Assembly (NCBI GenBank): GCA_016707895.1
Contig: JADJGV010000002.1
Coordinates: 335,695 to 399,694 of the forward strand
Reading direction: 5' to 3'
Source: Myxococcales bacterium
Lineage (GTDB): Bacteria; Myxococcota_A; Polyangia; Haliangiales; Haliangiaceae
DNA: 64,000 nucleotides
Shown: one piece after another, positions 5,546-42,905 of the stretch
Position numbering within the stretch: position 1 is the stretch's first letter
How the letters are laid out: every line of letters starts with the position of its first letter
Translations under genes and position numbers: made by a program
The notes under the pieces: generated by a model
Databases searched by the model: none
What the model was told of the DNA's origin: nothing
Seen by the model: the letters and a program-made list of their open reading frames with translations, nothing else

Positions 5546-6517
5546 GTGAAGAAGCCCCGCGCCGCGCCGCGGCCCACCGTCGACGCCCGGCTGGCGCAGC
5601 TCGCGGCCATGGAGCGCGGCGAGGCGCCGGTCGACCCAACGGTCGCGCGCGACGCGCTGGGCGGCAAGGTCGGGATCGTCGTGGCCGCGGCGGCGCGGCT
5701 GATCGGCGCCGGGGGGCTCGACGCGCTGATCGACGGTCTGGCGCCGGCGTTCGCGCGCCTGGTCGATGACGGCGTCGCACGCGATCCTGGCTGCCGCGGC
5801 AAGATCGCGATCGCCCGCGCGCTCGAGCAGCTCGATCGCTGGGACGACGCCGTGTTCCCGGTCGGCGTGCGGTTGGTCCAGGCCGAGCCGGTGTGGGGCG
5901 GGCGCGAGGACTCTGGCGCCGAGCTGCGCGCGGTGTGCGCCATGGCGTACGCCCACGCCTACCGCCCCGACGCGCTCGACGTGCTGGCCGATCTGCTCGC
6001 TGATCCCGAGCGCATGGCGCGGGTCGGCGCCGCCACCGCGCTCGGCGACGCCGGGCACGCCGACGCGACCGCGCTGCTCCGCTACAAGGTGCGCGTCGGC
6101 GATCCCGAGCCCGAGGTGATCGCCGCCTGCCTGGGTTCGTTGCTGACGCTGGCGCCCGAGCGGTCGTTGCCGCTGGTGGCCGGGCTGCTCGACGAGCGCG
6201 ACGACGATCGCGCCGCCGCCGCGGCGCTGGCGCTGGGCGAGAGCAAGCGCCCGAGCGCCGTGCCGCTGCTGATCGGCTGGTGCGAGCGCACGACGGCCGC
6301 GCTGCGCGCGCGGGTCGGCTACGTCGCGCTGGCGATGCTGCGCGACGCGGCGGCGGTCGATCACCTGCTCGCGGTGGTGGCGACCGCCGGCAAGGCCGAC
6401 GCGTTCGCGGCGATCGCCGCGCTGACGCCCTACGCCGCCGACGCGCGGCTGGCCGAGCGCCTGCGGGCCCACGCCGCGCAGCACCGCGATCCCGCGGTGC
6501 GCGCCGCCGCACCGTGA
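5546..6517 (+). CDS. HEAT/PBS-lyase-like repeat protein
   Basis: GTG start after the stop of the upstream gene. Repeated Ala/Leu-rich helical units (…RVGAATALGDAGHADATALLRY…AAAAALALGESKRPSAVPLLIGW…) typical of HEAT-like repeats. The upstream part of ORF 5225..6517 is off-frame noise. Confidence 0.5.
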   Translation: MKKPRAAPRPTVDARLAQLAAMERGEAPVDPTVARDALGGKVGIVVAAAARLIGAGGLDALIDGLAPAFARLVDDGVARDPGCRGKIAIARALEQLDRWDDAVFPVGVRLVQAEPVWGGREDSGAELRAVCAMAYAHAYRPDALDVLADLLADPERMARVGAATALGDAGHADATALLRYKVRVGDPEPEVIAACLGSLLTLAPERSLPLVAGLLDERDDDRAAAAALALGESKRPSAVPLLIGWCERTTAALRARVGYVALAMLRDAAAVDHLLAVVATAGKADAFAAIAALTPYAADARLAERLRAHAAQHRDPAVRAAAP

Positions 6518-6565
6518 GCTGGCATCGAACTTGATCTACCCGCGGCATCTCAACCGAGGTGCCGC

Positions 6566-7165
6566 ATGTCCCCCGTCTACTTCCTCCGTCGTTCCTCCCA
6601 CTTGTCCATCGCGCTCGGCGCGAGCCTGGTCGCCGTCGTTGCCACGCTGGCACTGGCCCCGTCGCGCGTGCGCCTCGCTGACGCGCGCGTCGTGGATGTG
6701 CCCGCGGTCGCCAGCCCCGCGTCGAGCGCCGCGCGCTGCGCCGGGTTGCCGCCGGCCGCGGCGCCGGTCCCGCCGGCCGCGCCACCGCTCGTCGCCGGCT
6801 GGGTCGGCTGGCCCGCGCTGGCTGGCATCACGCGCGTTGACGCCACGCACTTCACGCTGGCCCGCGACCTGATCGATCGCGCGCTCGCCGGTCCGGCGCA
6901 GCTGATCGGCGCGGCGCGCATCATGCCGTCGATCGCCGACGGCCAGCCGGTCGGCTTCAAGCTGTACGCGATGCGGCCCGGCTCGCCGCTCGCGGCGCTG
7001 GGCCTGGCCAACGGCGACACGCTGCGGGCGATCAACGGGATCGCGCTGACGTCACCGGACCGCGCGCTCGAGGCCTACACGCGCCTGCGCGCCGCCGATC
7101 GCCTCACGCTCGAGCTCACGCGCCGCGGCCAGCCGCTGACGCTGACCTACCAGATCGTCGACTGA
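6566..7165 (+). CDS. GspC-like PDZ-domain protein (N-terminal TM helix, Pro/Ala-rich linker, C-terminal PDZ)
   Basis: One TM helix, a PAAAPVPPAAPP linker and a C-terminal PDZ-like fold (QPVGFKLYAMRPGSPLAALGLANGDTLRAINGIAL). Architecture matches type II secretion GspC-like proteins. Confidence 0.55.
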   Translation: MSPVYFLRRSSHLSIALGASLVAVVATLALAPSRVRLADARVVDVPAVASPASSAARCAGLPPAAAPVPPAAPPLVAGWVGWPALAGITRVDATHFTLARDLIDRALAGPAQLIGAARIMPSIADGQPVGFKLYAMRPGSPLAALGLANGDTLRAINGIALTSPDRALEAYTRLRAADRLTLELTRRGQPLTLTYQIVD

Positions 7166-11782: not shown

Positions 11783-12196
11783 ATGGTCCGGTACTACGCC
11801 GCACAGCCGATCACGTCCAAGGCCCTGCACCAGGCCCTGCAGGCGGTCGATCCAGCGCTGAAGATCGACCTCGGTGAGCTGCTGCACGGCGACCAGTCCC
11901 TGGGACAGGTCGAGGTGAACCAGGCCAGCGGCGACCTGTTCGAGGACGACCTGCGCAACACGATCCGCGTCGTCGAGTCGACCGGCCACGGCGCCGCGGT
12001 CGTGCCCCGCCTGCGCGCCAGCCGCGCGGTCGTCGTCGCCGATCTCGACTGGGGCACCCGCGGCCCCGACGCCACGCTCGCGCTGGTCGCGCCGCTGTGG
12101 AACGTGCTGCGCCAGCTGTCGCCCGGGCTCGCCCAGTGGGACGGCCACGGCATGTACGACGGCGACCAGTGCGTCGTCGATCTGCGCGGCCGCTGA
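11783..12196 (+). CDS. hypothetical protein
   Basis: Internal ATG (MVRYYAAQPITSK…) of ORF 11633..12196. Codon usage returns to high GC. No motif recognised. Confidence 0.35.
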   Translation: MVRYYAAQPITSKALHQALQAVDPALKIDLGELLHGDQSLGQVEVNQASGDLFEDDLRNTIRVVESTGHGAAVVPRLRASRAVVVADLDWGTRGPDATLALVAPLWNVLRQLSPGLAQWDGHGMYDGDQCVVDLRGR

Positions 12197-12246
12197 TCAG
12201 GGCCGCTGATCCGCGCGGCTGATCAGTTTCGATCAATGGCTGATCA
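12191..12246. promoter_or_regulatory. array of 4-5 (GC)TGATCA/TGATCC motifs spaced ~13 bp apart
   Basis: GCTGATCAGGGCCGCTGATCCGCGCGGCTGATCAGTTTCGATCAATGGCTGATCAC lies upstream of the Cys-rich lipoprotein gene at 12370. TGATCA is palindromic and contains GATC. Confidence 0.3.
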
Positions 12247-12369
12247 CGGCGGGCGGAATCGCACGCGCAGCGCGGTCGCGTCTCGCGCGAGCGAGTGTCA
12301 GCGCGTGGGCCAGCGAGCGATCTCGAGATCGCCGCGCGGCCATGCACAGTGCCGCGCCAGGAGGTACCT

Positions 12370-12855
12370 ATGCACCTGCATACGATCTTGTCTGCGTTCA
12401 TTCTCTCGGTCGGCCTCGCGGCCTGTGGCGGAAGCGGCAGCGGTGACGACGTCGTCTCTGTCGACGCGCGGACCACCGATGGCGGCGGCGCGGCGGATGC
12501 GCCCGGTGGCGGTATCGACGCCCCTGGCGGCGGCAGCAACGCCCTCGGCATGCTCTGTAGCCCAACCGTGGCGTGCCCACTGGGCAACATGTGCACCGGC
12601 GTCACGGGAGTCGGAAGCCAGACGATGGGGTGGTGCACGCCGATGTGCTCGGGGCAGATGAGCACCGAATGCGCGACCGGCTACACAGGGCCCGCCGGCG
12701 GTCGGCCGGTGTGCATCCTCTCGCAGCCGGGCAGCACAATGGCGACTGGGTGCGCGATCATCTGCACCGCGCCCGAGCAGTGCCCGATGAACCTGGCGTG
12801 CATCCCCGTTCCTAATCAGCAAACGCCGTTCAGCATCTGCGCGCCCCCGGCCTGA
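12370..12855 (+). CDS. Cys-rich lipoprotein
   Basis: AGGAGG lies 6 nt upstream of the ATG. Lipobox ILSVGLAAC. A Gly/Asp-rich linker is followed by a Cys-rich domain (12 Cys). Confidence 0.6.
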   Translation: MHLHTILSAFILSVGLAACGGSGSGDDVVSVDARTTDGGGAADAPGGGIDAPGGGSNALGMLCSPTVACPLGNMCTGVTGVGSQTMGWCTPMCSGQMSTECATGYTGPAGGRPVCILSQPGSTMATGCAIICTAPEQCPMNLACIPVPNQQTPFSICAPPA

Positions 12856-12877
12856 TCGGTCGGAGCGGTCGCCCGAA

Positions 12878-13110
12878 TGCCCGAGTCGCAACCCCGAATC
12901 GAATGCCGGCCCCAGCCGGCCCCAGCCGGCCCCAAGAGCCGAGTCGCAGCCGAGTCGCAACCCAAGAGCCGAGTCGCAACCCATCGGATCGCGCGTGCCC
13001 AAGAGCCGAGTCGCCCAGCCGAGTCGCCCAAGAGCCGAGTCGCAACCCATCGGATCGCGCGTGCGGCCCCAAGAGCCGAGTCGCAACCCATCGGATCGCG
13101 CGTGCGGGGT
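12878..13110. repeat. complex tandem direct-repeat array (12-nt core AGCCGAGTCGCA ≥8 copies; ~38-nt higher-order unit CCAAGAGCCGAGTCGCAACCCATCGGATCGCGCGTGC ×3)
   Basis: Read directly from the sequence. Units abut with no unique spacers, so this is not a CRISPR array. It lies ~140 bp beyond the 3' end of the HUH transposase gene. Confidence 0.7.
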
Positions 13111-13250
13111 GAATCGCGTCGCGGAGTCACCTCCGTCGCCCGCCGAAAGCGCGGCCGCCCGGTCGACCAGGGGTGATGGCCTGGTGGGCCGGGCAGCGAG
13201 CGAAGAGGGCGGGTGGGTAGCGCGTCAGCGCAGGGCGAGCGGACGGACCG

Positions 13251-14246
13251 TCACGCGAGGGCGAGGTCGGCGTCGTCGAGGCCTCGGAGCCAGGTGGCGG
13301 CGAGGTCGGTGGGGGCGGGGATGTACCAGCGCGGGCGGACGAGCGCGCCGGGCGGGTAGCTGGCGGTGATCGCCGCGGCGATCTCGTCGGTGTCGGCGGA
13401 GGCGAGCTTGCGCAGACGCTCGGAGGCGCGCTTGTAGTGGTCGCGGAAGGTGGCGTAGGCGGCGAGGAAGCGCGCGCGGACGCGGACGCAGAAGGCGTGG
13501 CACGCCGGTGCAGGCGACGGCTCGAGCTTGTTGAGGGGCGTCGCATCGGGATCCTCGGCGATCACGCGACCCGCGCCGAGGACGGCGGCGCCGGCATGCT
13601 CGGCCTCGATCTCGGCGACGAGGGCGGCGTGCTTGGCGCGGAGCGCGGCCGGAGTGAGGTCGGCCCAGATGGGCAGCGGGGTGAGCGTGATGGCGACGTC
13701 GTGCGCGAGCTCGGCGTCGGAGTGCGGCTCCGGGCGGCGGGCGTTGCGGCGGCGCGCGTCGAGCGAGCGGTAGACGGCGGGGATGGTCATGTCGCCGAGC
13801 AGCGCGGGCGTCGAGCAGGCGCCGGGCCAGTCGCGCGGCGAGGCGACGAGGTTGGACGTGGGGCCCTGGGCGAGGATGTAGCGGAGGCGATCGATCTGGG
13901 CGTCACCATCGAGGACGGCGATGACGCTGCCGCGGCGGCTCCAGAAGACGCCTTCGCGATCGCGGAGGTCGTTGAGTTGACGGGCGATGTTGCCGTGAAC
14001 GTAGTCGATGAAGAGCGGCAGCTGATCGGGATCGTGGTCGGCCGAGCAGAGGTAGTGGAGGTGGTTGGATTGGGCGTCGAAGGCGTAGAGGCGGACCGCG
14101 GTGTAGAGCGCGAGTGCCTTGCCGAAGACGCCGTCGATGATCGCGCGGCACGCGGGATCGGGGCGCAGCCAGAAGTGGCCGCCCAGCGTCCGGATCGTCA
14201 CCTCGTAGAGCAACTGCGCCACGTAGAACCGCTGTCGATGCGCCAT
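13251..14246 (-). CDS. IS200/IS605-family Y1 HUH transposase (COG1943, RayT-like), with a long C-terminal extension
   Basis: HuH motif SNHLHYL. Catalytic Tyr helix RLRYILAQGPTSNLVASPRDWP matching the RayT/IS200 pattern Y..NP..LV..P.DWP. Start is an internal ATG (MAHRQRFYVAQ…). The upstream part of ORF 13251..14504 lies in a low-GC non-coding region. Confidence 0.7.
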   Translation of the reverse strand: MAHRQRFYVAQLLYEVTIRTLGGHFWLRPDPACRAIIDGVFGKALALYTAVRLYAFDAQSNHLHYLCSADHDPDQLPLFIDYVHGNIARQLNDLRDREGVFWSRRGSVIAVLDGDAQIDRLRYILAQGPTSNLVASPRDWPGACSTPALLGDMTIPAVYRSLDARRRNARRPEPHSDAELAHDVAITLTPLPIWADLTPAALRAKHAALVAEIEAEHAGAAVLGAGRVIAEDPDATPLNKLEPSPAPACHAFCVRVRARFLAAYATFRDHYKRASERLRKLASADTDEIAAAITASYPPGALVRPRWYIPAPTDLAATWLRGLDDADLALA

Positions 14247-14362
14247 GTGCCACCCCGGTCGGCGCCCACCGCGGGCGCATGGCCGGGCTATCGACCAGGC
14301 CGCGCGGCGGTTGCGTGGTTCGCGCGGACGGTCATGAGATCGTCGCGGGCGCGCCCCATGAA

Positions 14363-14402
14363 CCCCCGATCCGGTTGGCCCCGATGCCCCGATCCGGTTG
14401 GC
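14363..14402. promoter_or_regulatory. two copies of CCCCGATCCGGTTGGC (tandem direct repeat, 6-nt gap) ~35 nt upstream of the histone-like gene
   Basis: Read directly. Lies between the divergent transposase and histone-like genes. Confidence 0.4.
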
Positions 14403-14436
14403 TGCAACCCGTTTCAGGGAGGCCGATTCCCAATGC

Positions 14437-14841
14437 ATGTTGGTCGACATGGAGGACGGAGACAGAGTAAAGGACGTGGCCGGCTCCGGCTTCGCGTACT
14501 TCATGGATGTCGTGACCGTGCTGGAGGTCCTGGAGGCCTTCGGGAAGCGAAGGCCGAAGTTGGAAGAGAAGCTCCGCCTGCTCAGCCACTACGCGGAAAA
14601 CGACGCGTACCCGGAGTGGGTGTTCGCGAAGGTGACCAAGGCCCCCAAGCGCGCCAAGCCGACCGAGCGCGCCAAGCCGACCAAGCGCGCCAAGCCTGCC
14701 AAGCGCGCCAAGCGCGCCGCCGAGCGCGAGGCCGCGAAGGCCACCAAGCCTACGAAGGCCACCAAGCCTACGAAGGCCACCAAGCCCTCCAAGCCCGCGA
14801 AGGCCACCAAGGCCAGGACCACCACGCCCCGGAAGCGCTAG
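14437..14841 (+). CDS. small DNA-binding-like protein with histone H1-like Lys/Ala/Pro-rich repetitive tail
   Basis: GGGAGG lies ~15 nt upstream of the ATG. Globular N-terminus, then KAPKRAKPTERAKPTKRAKPAKRAKRAA…ATKPTKATKPTKATKPSKPAKATKA. The antisense ORF 14332..15054 is the mirror image of these repeats. Confidence 0.55.
   Translation: MLVDMEDGDRVKDVAGSGFAYFMDVVTVLEVLEAFGKRRPKLEEKLRLLSHYAENDAYPEWVFAKVTKAPKRAKPTERAKPTKRAKPAKRAKRAAEREAAKATKPTKATKPTKATKPSKPAKATKARTTTPRKR
14643..14832 (+). repeat. in-frame coding tandem repeats (18-nt and 21-nt units) encoding the AKP/TKA tail
   Basis: GCGCCAAGCCGACC… and GCCACCAAGCCTACGAAG… units repeated in tandem within the CDS. Confidence 0.5.
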
Positions 14842-14859
14842 CGGCACGTCGCCCGGCGC

Positions 14860-15090
14860 TTGTCGTCCAGGGCCGACGGAGGCACGCTGGTGTCCGTGCA
14901 GCGCGACGCGCAACCCGCCAGCTCGGCGCCGTCGGTGCCTGCGGCCGAGGTCCCTGCGGCCGAGATCGACGAGTCGTTGCTGGACTGGTACCGACAGCTG
15001 ACGATGTGCGAGCGGTTGCGCGCGGCGAGCAAGTCGGCGGCGACGCTGGAGCACCTGGCTCGTGCCGCGAACCCCGACCGCGACCGTTGA
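14860..15090 (+). CDS. possible small ORF (76 aa), unknown
   Basis: Fills an otherwise empty gap. No motif recognised. Weak. Confidence 0.2.
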   Translation: MSSRADGGTLVSVQRDAQPASSAPSVPAAEVPAAEIDESLLDWYRQLTMCERLRAASKSAATLEHLARAANPDRDR

Positions 15091-15098
15091 TACAAGCG

Positions 15099-15422
15099 CT
15101 AGATCGGGCGCCGGCGCCAGTAGCCCGGGCGTCGCTTCGCGTGAGCCACAGCGATGACATCGATCGTGTCGGCAAGGACCACGTAGACGACGCGATACGG
15201 GAATCGCCGCACCTTGATCGAACGGATGTCCGGTGCCAGCAAGATCGGATGCGCCTGCGGGAGCCCAGCGATCAAGACGAGGGCGCCTTCGATCGCGGTG
15301 GCGAACCGCTGACCGCGGCCTTCGCGTTCGCGCTCATAGTAGGCGACGGCCTCGATGAGTTCCCGCGCCGCCGCCGGACGAAACGAGATCAGGTCTTCAG
15401 CGCGCGCTTCACGTCCGCCCAT
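15099..15422 (-). CDS. ParE/RelE-family type II toxin
   Basis: …LISFRPAAARELIEAVAYY… matches the ParE N-terminus. Size ~100 aa. Overlaps the upstream antitoxin gene. Confidence 0.7.
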   Translation of the reverse strand: MGGREARAEDLISFRPAAARELIEAVAYYEREREGRGQRFATAIEGALVLIAGLPQAHPILLAPDIRSIKVRRFPYRVVYVVLADTIDVIAVAHAKRRPGYWRRRPI

Positions 15423-15598
15423 GACACCCCCGGCGCCCCACCGCGCGCCTCCGCGGCCCGCCGTTCGAGCTCGGCGTGATCGTCGATCGAGATCCCGGGC
15501 GGGGCCTCGACGCTGTCGAGCAAGTGCGCCGCCAGCTCCTCGCGCTCGGCGGCGGAGAGCGCCATCGCCTCGTCAAGGAGCTGCACCACCGTGGCCAT
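15389..15598 (-). CDS. putative antitoxin (addiction-module component)
   Basis: Small acidic helical protein (MATVVQLLDEAMALSAAEREELAAHLLDSVE…) directly upstream of, and overlapping, the ParE gene. Confidence 0.6.
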   Translation of the reverse strand: MATVVQLLDEAMALSAAEREELAAHLLDSVEAPPGISIDDHAELERRAAEARGGAPGVSWADVKRALKT

Positions 15599-40779: not shown

Positions 40780-40889
40780 CGCGTGAGCTTACGCGGGGTT
40801 GCGTCGCTGCGGGGGCGCGCCGCGGCGGCGATCGGTCGCGGTCAGTGCGTCGCACGCAACCGCGGCGCGGTGCGGTCGATAGCCGCGGC

Positions 40890-42905
40890 ATGAATGCACC
40901 AAGACTCGTCGCGTTGCTCTCGGTCGGTGGCCTGCTCGTCGGATGTGGCGGAGGTCGCCCGGCGCCGCCGGCGCGGCCCGTCGCCGCCGCGAAGGTGGAC
41001 CTCAAGCGCGCCAAGGCGCCCGCCACCGCGGTCATCCTCGGTACCGGCGGCGCCGGCGATTCGACCACGCTGACGCTGCCCACCGGCTCGCAGCGGGTGA
41101 CGGTGTCGCCGCTGTTCGTGCGCGGCGCCAATGCCGACGCCGAGGGCGGGATCGGCTCGGTCGACCTGATCGTGCAGGCGGCCACCAGCGGGCAGGTGAA
41201 GGTCGGCGTGTTCGAGGACGTCGCCGGCGGCGCCGGGCCCGAGTGGCGGGCCGGCGTGTGGCTGGCGGCGTACGTCGCGGTGAGCGTGCTCGACAAGGAC
41301 CTCACCGACTTCGCGTTCGAGGCGACCTCGAGCGGTCACGTCGACGGCGCGTCGGCGTCGGCGCTGATGTCGGCGGGCCTCGTCGCGGCGATCCTCGGCT
41401 GGCAGGTCGACGCGGCCGCGACGATGACCGGGACCATCAACCCCGACGGCACCGTCGGGCCGGTCAGCGGCATCCCGCAGAAGTTCGCGGCGGCGCTGGC
41501 CGCCGGCAAGCGCCGGCTGGGCTACCCGGTCGGGCAGCGGCTCGCGATCGACGCGGCCACCGGCGCCGAGGTCGACCTGGTGGCGCTGGCGCGCGAGCGC
41601 GGCGCCGAGGCGGTCGAGATCGCCGACATCTACGGCGCGATCGAGCTGATGACCGGGCGCGCGCTGCCGCGGCCGCTGCCGCTGGCCAGCAACGCGATGG
41701 AGCTGCCCGCCGAGATCGCGGATCGCGTCGGCGCGCGGGTCGACGCCTGGGACAAGCGGGTCGACGCGCTGCACGAGGAGCTCGACGGCGGCTACGACCT
41801 CGGCACCGCGGCGCTGGGCGCCTACCTGCGCTCGACGGTCGCCCACGATCGCGCCTTCAAGCAGCGCAAGCAGGGGATGGTGGCCCCGGCGTATCACGGC
41901 ATGGTGGCGGCGTGGATCGCGGCGTCGGCCAGCCGCGACGCCGCGACCGTGCTCGGCTACGCCGTCGACGGCGACGTCGAGGGCGCGATGCGCGAGCTCG
42001 ACCGCCTGACCGCCGAGCTGGCGACGGCGACCGACGCGGTGCGCGCGGTGGGCACGCGCAAGCCGGCGACGATGGGCGACCACCTGCAGATGCTGTCGGC
42101 GTTCGACGCGGCCATCGATGGCTGGAGCTTGCAGACGTTCGCCGAGGCGCTGGTCCGCCGCACCCGGGTGCGCCTCGAGGTCCTGCGCGAGGACCCCGAC
42201 GATGACTACGCGCTCACCGCGGTGGGCCGCGACGTCGTGGCCGCGACCACCGCGATCGCCCGGGCGCGCGCGGCGGTGCTCCTGACCCAGGACGCGGCCG
42301 AGATCGAGACCGCGCCGTCGGCGGTCTACCGCTGCTCGCTGCCCGCGGTGAAGCGGCTCGCGACCTCGTTCGCCGCCGCCGCCGGCTCCAACCTGGCCTA
42401 CGTCGAGGCGCTGGGCGGCATCACCACCGACCTCGGCCGCGACCTCACCGCGGCGACCGAGCCCGACTACCTGGTCGCGGCGGTCGGCAGCCGCGTCGGC
42501 GACGCCACCGGCGTGCCGGCGACGCTCAAGGCCGCGTGGGGCGAGGACTCGGTCGGCTGGCGCCTGTTCACGCTGGCCGCCAGCCAGCAGTCGTACTTCC
42601 GCAGCTCGCTGCTCGCGTCGCGCTGGCACTCGCTGGGCGTGCGCGTGGGGCTCGACGGCCGCGCCTACGCCATCGGCAACGAGCGCGCCCTGCTCAACAT
42701 GCTCGAGTTCGCCGAGCAGCGCGCGCGCGAGCACGCCCACGCCGCGCAGGTCGCCACCGGCGAGGTGCCGCTGCAGACCCAGCTCCACTACCAGACCGCC
42801 CGCGGCCTCCGCGAAGGCGACGCGGCCGACAAGCTCGCCGCGCTCGCCGCGTACTGGGCCGCCTCGGCGTACGCCCAGTCGGCGCTGATGCTCGCGCGCA
42901 ACTGA
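40890..42905 (+). CDS. Lon-like S16 serine peptidase domain lipoprotein
   Basis: Lipobox LLVGCGGG. Lon proteolytic domain (DGASASALMSAGLVAAILG…TGTINPDGTVGPVSGIPQKFAAA). Long helical C-terminal region. Confidence 0.7.
   Translation: MNAPRLVALLSVGGLLVGCGGGRPAPPARPVAAAKVDLKRAKAPATAVILGTGGAGDSTTLTLPTGSQRVTVSPLFVRGANADAEGGIGSVDLIVQAATSGQVKVGVFEDVAGGAGPEWRAGVWLAAYVAVSVLDKDLTDFAFEATSSGHVDGASASALMSAGLVAAILGWQVDAAATMTGTINPDGTVGPVSGIPQKFAAALAAGKRRLGYPVGQRLAIDAATGAEVDLVALARERGAEAVEIADIYGAIELMTGRALPRPLPLASNAMELPAEIADRVGARVDAWDKRVDALHEELDGGYDLGTAALGAYLRSTVAHDRAFKQRKQGMVAPAYHGMVAAWIAASASRDAATVLGYAVDGDVEGAMRELDRLTAELATATDAVRAVGTRKPATMGDHLQMLSAFDAAIDGWSLQTFAEALVRRTRVRLEVLREDPDDDYALTAVGRDVVAATTAIARARAAVLLTQDAAEIETAPSAVYRCSLPAVKRLATSFAAAAGSNLAYVEALGGITTDLGRDLTAATEPDYLVAAVGSRVGDATGVPATLKAAWGEDSVGWRLFTLAASQQSYFRSSLLASRWHSLGVRVGLDGRAYAIGNERALLNMLEFAEQRAREHAHAAQVATGEVPLQTQLHYQTARGLREGDAADKLAALAAYWAASAYAQSALMLARN

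Follow-up and report, generated by a model that had tools for sequence, protein, structure and literature searches.

Positions 12870..14421 of a 64,000-nt stretch of the genome of an uncultured Myxococcales bacterium (contig JADJGV010000002.1; hereafter the window, meaning the whole stretch analysed) hold a gene for a Y1 HUH protein and, downstream of it, a tandem-repeat array. We consider it likely that this locus is one copy of a small, selfish, insertion sequence (IS)-like element of the Y1 HUH (IS200/IS605-RayT) superfamily, and that the array is the amplified end unit of that element. From sequence comparison, the predicted module consists of a promoter-like 5′ block of 70 nt, the gene, a 143-nt 3′ block with hairpins, and a terminal unit of 33-40 nt with a hairpin around YTGC. 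The basic form of the element would measure ~1.3 kb, and the window copy 1552 bp with putative, imperfectly inverted ends.

The extent of the module is apparent when copies are compared. Copies with 82-90% amino acid identity occur in five unrelated contexts (the window and loci L006, L031, L035 and L036), and DNA homology among them runs from ~70 nt upstream of the ATG to the repeat unit. L036 has exactly one unit followed by unrelated DNA, L035 has two units, and L006, L030, L031 and the window have arrays. Given that homology ends at the unit and that L036 carries a single one, we conclude that the first unit is the right terminus and that the array is a local amplification. The array is thus best described not as an independent satellite but as the predicted terminus of the element itself, amplified in whole units and in halves. 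L006, L030, L031, L035 and L036 have homologous units in the corresponding position, and tandem arrays begin 110-260 nt past the stop codon in 15 of 21 loci.

Distant lineages have their own unit variants at this position, each keeping a short hairpin around YTGC. The unit core is GGGT-TGCG-ACTC in the window, GGT-TGCT-ACC in L008-13 (unit GAGAGGTTGCTACCCGTCGTTGGG), GGGTGGC-T-GCCACCC in L024-26 (unit GGGTGGCTGCCACCCTTGC) and GAGTCG-CTG-CGACCC in L019 (unit GATCCGAGTCGCTGCGACCC); the unit in L007 is GAGTCGATCGGTTGCGACTC. As judged from these alignments, unit and protein co-diverge between lineages. Related units adjoin gene copies in other genomes, which supports the earlier proposal that the array is the cognate repeat of the transposase. 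Arrays turn over faster than the gene, since L024, L025 and L026 encode an identical protein (P0043) and carry different arrays (periods of 33, 23 and 47 nt).

In the window the array starts 143 nt past the stop codon and spans 238 bp. The original prediction had described ~230 bp of repeats ~140 bp beyond the 3′ end, built from at least eight copies of a 12-nt core in ~38-nt higher-order units without unique spacers. The array and its core are real: the 12-mer AGCCGAGTCGCA is present in five exact and two one-mismatch copies (1.15 expected; 0 of 100 shuffles), and an eighth copy at 12879 has two mismatches. No unique spacers were found in the array, as had been stated, and the higher-order unit is corrected to 40-41 nt. 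Three near-identical 40-nt units (12961-13000, 13027-13066 and 13068-13107) are accompanied by four half-units (inside 12935-12960 and 13001-13026), three repeats of 10 nt (12905-12934) and, distally, one unit that has diverged (12870-12905). The periods given by Tandem Repeats Finder are 41 and 66, with scores up to 241. A CRISPR-like array was ruled out by the lack of spacers and by empty PADLOC and PHROGs results. A coding repeat was ruled out because the periods of 13, 16, 41 and 66 nt are not all multiples of three and because the number of units differs between copies.

Such an array could also be a plain minisatellite, arising from slipped replication in the gene's 3′ flank and functionally unconnected to the enzyme, in which case the likeness of the units would reflect common descent of the flank. 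In keeping with this, GGG microhomologies mark the junctions of partial units and of long duplications of 95-176 nt in L011, L012 and L031, folding gives the units no significant structure, and six samples of the window locus share an identical array. However, we regard a minisatellite as unlikely: the homology between copies has its exact right boundary at the unit, the unit recurs singly and within a gene-less miniature as well as inverted upstream of the gene, and a small hairpin centred on a conserved YTGC persists in the lineage variants. The truncation points of partial units also cluster in or beside the YTGC centre, as read from the sequences of the window and two other lineages. This would fit nicking of the loop, but slippage at a recurrent GGG microhomology equally well.

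Signs of mobility come from one Kofleriaceae metagenome-assembled genome (MAG; Gw_SlAct_bin_340), in which at least eight copies with 85-97% nucleotide identity are found on five contigs. Several of these are 94-97% identical over the module alone, there are two tandem pairs, and some are truncated at the 5′ end or reduced to right-end (RE) fragments. A few solo units occur in a genome other than that of the window, in intergenic DNA within 3 kb of genes. Independent copies have different left flanks (TTCG, CGTT and CTGT), and a comparison of the flanks of five close copies revealed neither a common target nor a target duplication. Overall, the element seems to be mobile and not domesticated.

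A metagenome scan with the window unit returned three loci, among them two further gene-carrying copies and the gene-less L032; it missed a known JGI contig and is unfit for estimating copy number. L032 is a 3.3-kb contig whose arrangement covers 155 bp (1566-1720): a 43-nt left piece, seen also on the left side of the L006 copy, is followed by a unit, 18 nt and then a 62-nt RE-distal piece that carries a second unit. We regard L032 as a candidate non-autonomous miniature. The arrangement directly follows what reads as the 3′ end of a DDE transposase gene.

The minus-strand open reading frame (ORF) of the window gene was confirmed. A 417-aa reading starting at 14504 was dropped in favour of the 331-aa product because every homologue begins at the shared Met of MAHRQR/MGHR. 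We found 74 relatives, all from Kofleriaceae/Myxococcales MAGs or from metagenomes, and scored motif conservation on an alignment of 26 relatives. No relative deviates at H62, R120 or Y123, and conservation at H64 is at least 90%. The window protein alone scores weakly: it reaches 12.1 bits with Pfam Y1_Tnp (PF01797; gathering cut-off 23) and 28.1 bits with NCBIfam REP_Tyr_transpos (NF047646; equivalog cut-off 80), the latter over the full model length. Among the 26 relatives, PF01797 is matched by nine at E<=0.01 (best 9e-11), REP_Tyr_transpos by all (best E 8e-17) and the IS200 model NF033573 by just three.

When the family profile was compared with the PDB, ISDra2 TnpA was found with the HuH motif and the Tyr in register: SNHLH aligns with DHVH of ISDra2 TnpA, and Y123 with the Tyr of KYIESQ in 2xm3. 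The core fold of the N-terminal half is that of RayT, and the top structural and profile matches are TnpA_REP; relatives are labelled RayT in IMG. The HuH motif, the single catalytic Tyr and the core fold of the Y1 HUH superfamily (TnpA_Y1) are all present. The window protein has YILAQG as its Y motif and relatives have [QNH]G, in contrast to the Y---NP of class 2. From this family context, and despite the weak scores of the single protein, we infer that the N-terminal half is a RayT-type Y1 HUH nuclease. The original observation of gene, motifs and array is confirmed as a whole, with corrected details. Both the SNHLHYL HuH motif and the RayT-type catalytic-Tyr helix (RLRYILAQGP...DWPG) were seen, and the alignment of the Tyr with that of ISDra2 TnpA, together with the RayT fold, supports a RayT-like Y1 enzyme with a long C-terminal extension. 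That extension is real, at ~185 aa (146-331) instead of the ~170 first given.

The 185-aa C-terminal domain is predicted from profile searches to be specific to the family and always to accompany the Y1 domain. A HMMER pass with the C-terminal part alone over 1.84 billion representatives retrieved 304 proteins, nearly all of 300-350 aa and matching at ~145-310. Their N-termini are weak Y1_Tnp matches, and their source labels are 'RayT' or 'hypothetical'. The conserved domain has no match to a known fold or family, and neither Bac_DnaA_C nor another helix-turn-helix (HTH) C-terminal domain was found in the window protein. The family comprises ~300 protein clusters at 50% identity, nearly all metagenomic. 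Its motif set (NHLH, FWS and YILAQG, with a class-2-like 'LV..P.DWPG..S' tail) lies outside all 12 TnpA_Y1 subclasses in the classification of PMC6006769. One 521-aa protein of the representative library (P0181) has serine-recombinase 'Recombinase' and zinc-ribbon domains, and its residues 387-498 match the family C-terminal domain (E 5e-7); either a true fusion or an artefact of gene calling at an insertion could account for this protein.

On either side of the gene, the conserved blocks have distinct architectures. The 5′ block consists of the promoter-like ACGCAACC-N16-CGATAGC and a 40-nt leader. The leader contains the hairpin GCGCCC-GCGGT-GGGCGC (14262-14278), whose stem has compensatory changes in L008 (GCGCGTC/GACGCGC) and L014 (GCCCG/CGGGC). 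Across 36 loci the 5′ motif was found solely upstream of family genes, and in the window it has two matches against 0.01 expected. The idea that the block is a general promoter of the genome was rejected in this general form, as the motif lies only upstream of or next to family genes, plus an orphan at 40854. In the 3′ block, the RNAalifold consensus has 22 pairs, five of them with double changes, and the fourth conserved element is given as TCCGCGACGCGAT.

Upstream of the gene, an inverted unit and the downstream units form an imperfect terminal inverted pair. The inverted unit is identical to the downstream unit at 23 of 34 positions (68%) without gaps, has an orientation score of 7 inverted against 0 direct, and includes a one-mismatch match to the core pattern. 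Two tandem 16-nt repeats had been noted in this region; they are present (14364-14379 and 14387-14402) but lie 7 nt apart, and they are no separate feature, being a half-unit and part of the full inverted unit of the same repeat family. The half-unit stops at the centre of the small hairpin. Nor is 14247..14436 AT-richer, as had been suggested: its GC content is 72.6% against 73.4% for the window, with a drop to 68% only past 14317.

The 3′ block and units might instead be a transcribed, structured 3′ untranslated region (UTR), a terminator or a small RNA, with the 5′ block acting only as a promoter and no transposon end involved. Both blocks are co-oriented with the gene and the hairpins are conserved, and in L019 and at window position 40890 an ATG lies 6 nt after the 5′ motif, as for the promoter of a leaderless mRNA. 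We find this explanation very improbable. No Rfam match was obtained in 12000-15500 at E<=1, neither a sigma-70-like promoter nor an intrinsic terminator was found, and the many near-identical copies, the solo units, the inverted upstream unit and L032 would be left unexplained. The promoter component is also compatible with a mobile element, because insertion-sequence ends commonly contain a promoter.

The orphan 5′ block lies at 40797..40892 (+). It comprises ACGCAACCGCGGCGCGGTGCGGTCGATAGC at 40854-40883, identical to 14287-14316 at 26 of 30 positions, and an inverted GGTTGCGT at 40797-40804, 50 nt upstream of ACGCAACCGCGGCGCGGTGCGGTCGATAGC. Its end is separated by 6 nt from the ATG (40890) that follows, the start of an unrelated lipoprotein gene, and the same spacing from motif to ATG recurs at the family gene in L019. 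This orphan may be a relic left end that now serves as the promoter of a leaderless mRNA. In L031, L035 and L036 part of the 5′ block recurs in inverted orientation ~60-130 nt upstream of the ATG and makes up the left boundary. The ~38-nt arms match in stretches of 7 and 11 bp around a ~25-nt spacer, which yields a large imperfect palindrome at the left end. The window copy is without this palindrome and has the inverted unit instead.

The close resemblance to RayT raises the alternative of a domesticated REPtron, that is, a single-copy, vertically inherited RayT gene kept by the host, whose units would be genome-wide repetitive extragenic palindromes (REP) or bacterial interspersed mosaic elements (BIME) and whose array would be a BIME cluster. 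The TnpA_REP matches and IMG labels accord with this, as do the inverted repeats on both sides of the gene, the single copy in the window and the stable synteny of several lineages. We consider domestication rather unlikely, however, on several grounds. The window units carry neither a GTAG-type nor a CGTC tag; they are weak palindromes with stems of 3-8 bp, not significant as structures, and have the conserved YTGC centre instead of GTAG. Strong REP-like hairpins were ruled out by folding single units and both flanks against shuffles. At least eight near-identical copies, including truncated and tandem ones, are present in one MAG, and close copies occur in five different contexts. The protein misses the NCBIfam equivalog cut-off (28 vs 80 bits), and its Y motif is YILAQG, not Y---NP (table in PMC6006769). 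The proposal that the array is a REP/BIME-like substrate of the enzyme therefore stands in that the repeat goes with the enzyme, but the REP/BIME label does not: besides lacking the tag, folding no better than shuffles and being absent elsewhere in 64 kb, the units form the right terminus of the gene module, and the gene is IS-like in one genome.

Against the reading of a mobile element with an amplified end weigh several observations. The window has one copy of the gene, and the search for unit copies elsewhere that had been proposed for the genome found none outside the locus in these 64 kb. Five other samples carry an identical window locus, and synteny across samples is seen for the P0043 and P0035 lineages. 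In the MAG, some of the multi-copy signal comes from a larger segmental duplication, L008 and L010 being 97.7% identical over 3.6 kb. Neither an empty site nor a target sequence or circle junction came to light, and a search of plasmids returned no family member and only distant matches to the N domain. The 5′ block may be simply a promoter. Single units fold at -3.5 to -7.5 kcal/mol (free energy; z -1.3 to +0.7 vs shuffles), larger flanks have no excess stability over shuffles, and conservation of the RE hairpin lies mostly in its sequence (covariation term just -0.38). The array junctions coincide with GGG microhomologies, and thus slippage alone could produce the array.

We compared the element with four known systems. 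E. coli TnpA_REP (RayT) and its REPtrons (PDB 4ER8; PMC3479197, PMC8266576) also have a gene flanked by cognate short repeats, as seen here in the units downstream and the inverted unit upstream, and likewise in relatives. However, the window protein is twice as long, with its extra 185-aa domain, and the family has YILAQG in place of the Y---NP of E. coli TnpA_REP. REPtron repeats are 20-50-nt palindromes with GTAG, whereas the window units are weak palindromes of 3-7 bp without it. tnpA_REP is single-copy, with no evidence of mobility (PMC8266576), while the window family is multi-copy and apparently mobile in one genome. As for dispersal of the units across genomes, there are none outside the locus in 64 kb, a few solos <3 kb from genes in another genome, and one gene-less metagenome site.

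TIRtrons/TIRYT (PMC3733652; TnpA_Y1 subclass 2.1) likewise have a RayT-like gene longer than RayT and inverted repeats unrelated to GTAG REPs, and their repeats can be dimers or clusters and form moderately abundant families (Di Nocera et al. 2013, PMC3733652). The likeness extends to L034, a 39%-identical relative bounded by clean 20-bp inverted repeats (95% complementary), whereas the window pair is 34 nt long and just 68% identical. The GGGGWSAS motif and the Bac_DnaA_C/HTH C-terminal domain of TIRtrons are both absent from the window element, and the HuH and Y motifs of subclass 2.1 differ from those of the window family (PMC6006769).

With IS200/IS605 elements (IS608, ISDra2) the family shares the catalytic core, IS-like copy number and truncated copies in one genome and, in the window clade, Q at Y+4. 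The conserved hairpins in both blocks, putatively subterminal, and the absence of an observed target duplication may be further likenesses. In contrast, their TnpA has ~150 aa against 331 aa here, the profile prefers RayT (26 vs 3 members), and the window element has no tnpB and a tandemly amplified right end. Neither guide/cleavage-site pairing nor a target tetranucleotide was identified in the window family. IS200/IS605 ends are without inverted terminal repeats, whereas unit-type inverted repeats flank the window gene, the exact termini being putative. Subclass 2.3 of TnpA_Y1 (Quentin et al. 2018, PMC6006769), with a median length of 325 aa, resembles the family in its long protein, several copies per genome and a distal C-terminal domain that is specific to the subclass. 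Its motifs are NHYH/YVDLNP and its core has two insertions, whereas the window family has NHLH/YILAQG and an uninterrupted core; it occurs in Chromatiales and Alteromonadales without flanking repeats, whereas the window family occurs in Myxococcota and has them. By its motifs and fold the family belongs to the Y1 HUH superfamily. We would place it as a so far undescribed branch of TnpA_Y1 that behaves in an IS-like way, and describe the element as RayT-fold and 'TIRtron/REPtron-like'.

By homology to IS608/ISDra2 and E. coli TnpA_REP (PMC8266576), the enzyme would bind folded single-stranded end sequences, cut the ends through a 5′-phosphotyrosine link at Tyr123 and rejoin them. H62 and H64 would serve for the metal, and Y123 would be the nucleophile. 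Cutting and rejoining could then move the element or its end units, and the array may have arisen from repeated cutting and rejoining at the right end or from slippage at the GGG microhomologies. We temper this mechanism because the units show no significant structure when folded alone and the RE hairpin is conserved mainly in sequence.

Table 1 Features of the putative element in the window
Feature	Position	Strand	Description
Y1 HUH protein gene	13251..14246	-	ORF, 331 aa
N-terminal RayT-like nuclease domain (predicted)	13812-14246	-	~residues 1-145
Family-specific C-terminal domain (predicted)	13254-13811	-	residues 146-331
Conserved 5′ block ('LE')	14247..14316	-	70 nt; homology between contexts starts here
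Conserved 3′ block ('RE')	13108..13250	-	143 nt; alignment of 11 loci
Invariant CTGCGCTGACGCGC	13220-13233		in 3′ block
Imperfect 14-bp hairpin CCCGGCCCACCAGG...CCTGGTCGACCGGG	13158-13193		in 3′ block
GCGCTTTCGG			in 3′ block
TCCGCGACGCGATTC	13111-13125		in 3′ block
Terminal-unit array	12870..13107	-	238 bp; gene-strand unit CGCGATCCGATGGGTTGCGACTCGGCTCTTGGG
Inverted unit copy CCCCGATCCGGTTGGCTGCAACCCGTTTCAGGGAG	14387..14421	+	upstream of the gene
Half-unit	14364..14379	+	exact 16-nt repeat of 14387-14402; duplicated 5′ half of the upstream unit

Next to the element, a gene at 14437-14841 (+) begins 16 nt outside the upstream inverted unit. It encodes a small protein with a Lys/Ala/Pro-rich tail (AKPTKRAKP...) that derives from 9- and 18-nt tandem repeats at 14635-14815 and resembles a histone-H1-type tail. 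Beyond it, at 15099-15598 (-), the gene calls of contig L001, which is identical, place a ParE-type toxin (15099-15422) together with an Unstab_antitox antitoxin (15389-15598). In L006, whose copy of the element is 90% identical, a segment of ~850 bp (6280-7100) with ~52% GC, in a genome of 72-79% GC, lies between the array and a further unit at 7116-7151. It has a 145-aa ORF on the opposite strand and appears to be foreign DNA inserted into the array. In L024-L026 (3976-4400) the downstream spacer differs by ~350 bp, and GGGATC/GCGATC and ACTCGG repeats lie upstream of the genes.

RayT/TnpA_REP enzymes are regarded as domesticated single-copy genes, and the route by which REPs spread is unresolved. 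We tentatively raise the possibility, which we think doubtful, that the family is an active intermediate between IS200/IS605 and domesticated REPtrons. Its RayT-fold enzyme would still move its own gene, using the new C-terminal domain, would nick the YTGC centre in a Rep-like manner, and would shed end units as arrays, solos and miniatures. If this were true, REP/BIME families would here be caught being born. With IS-like copy number, a gene module, end units that amplify and disperse locally, and a miniature, the family would offer a tractable system for the origin of such repeats. For the annotation of Kofleriaceae-type genomes, one ordinary mobile unit would account for both a hypothetical protein and an otherwise puzzling satellite.

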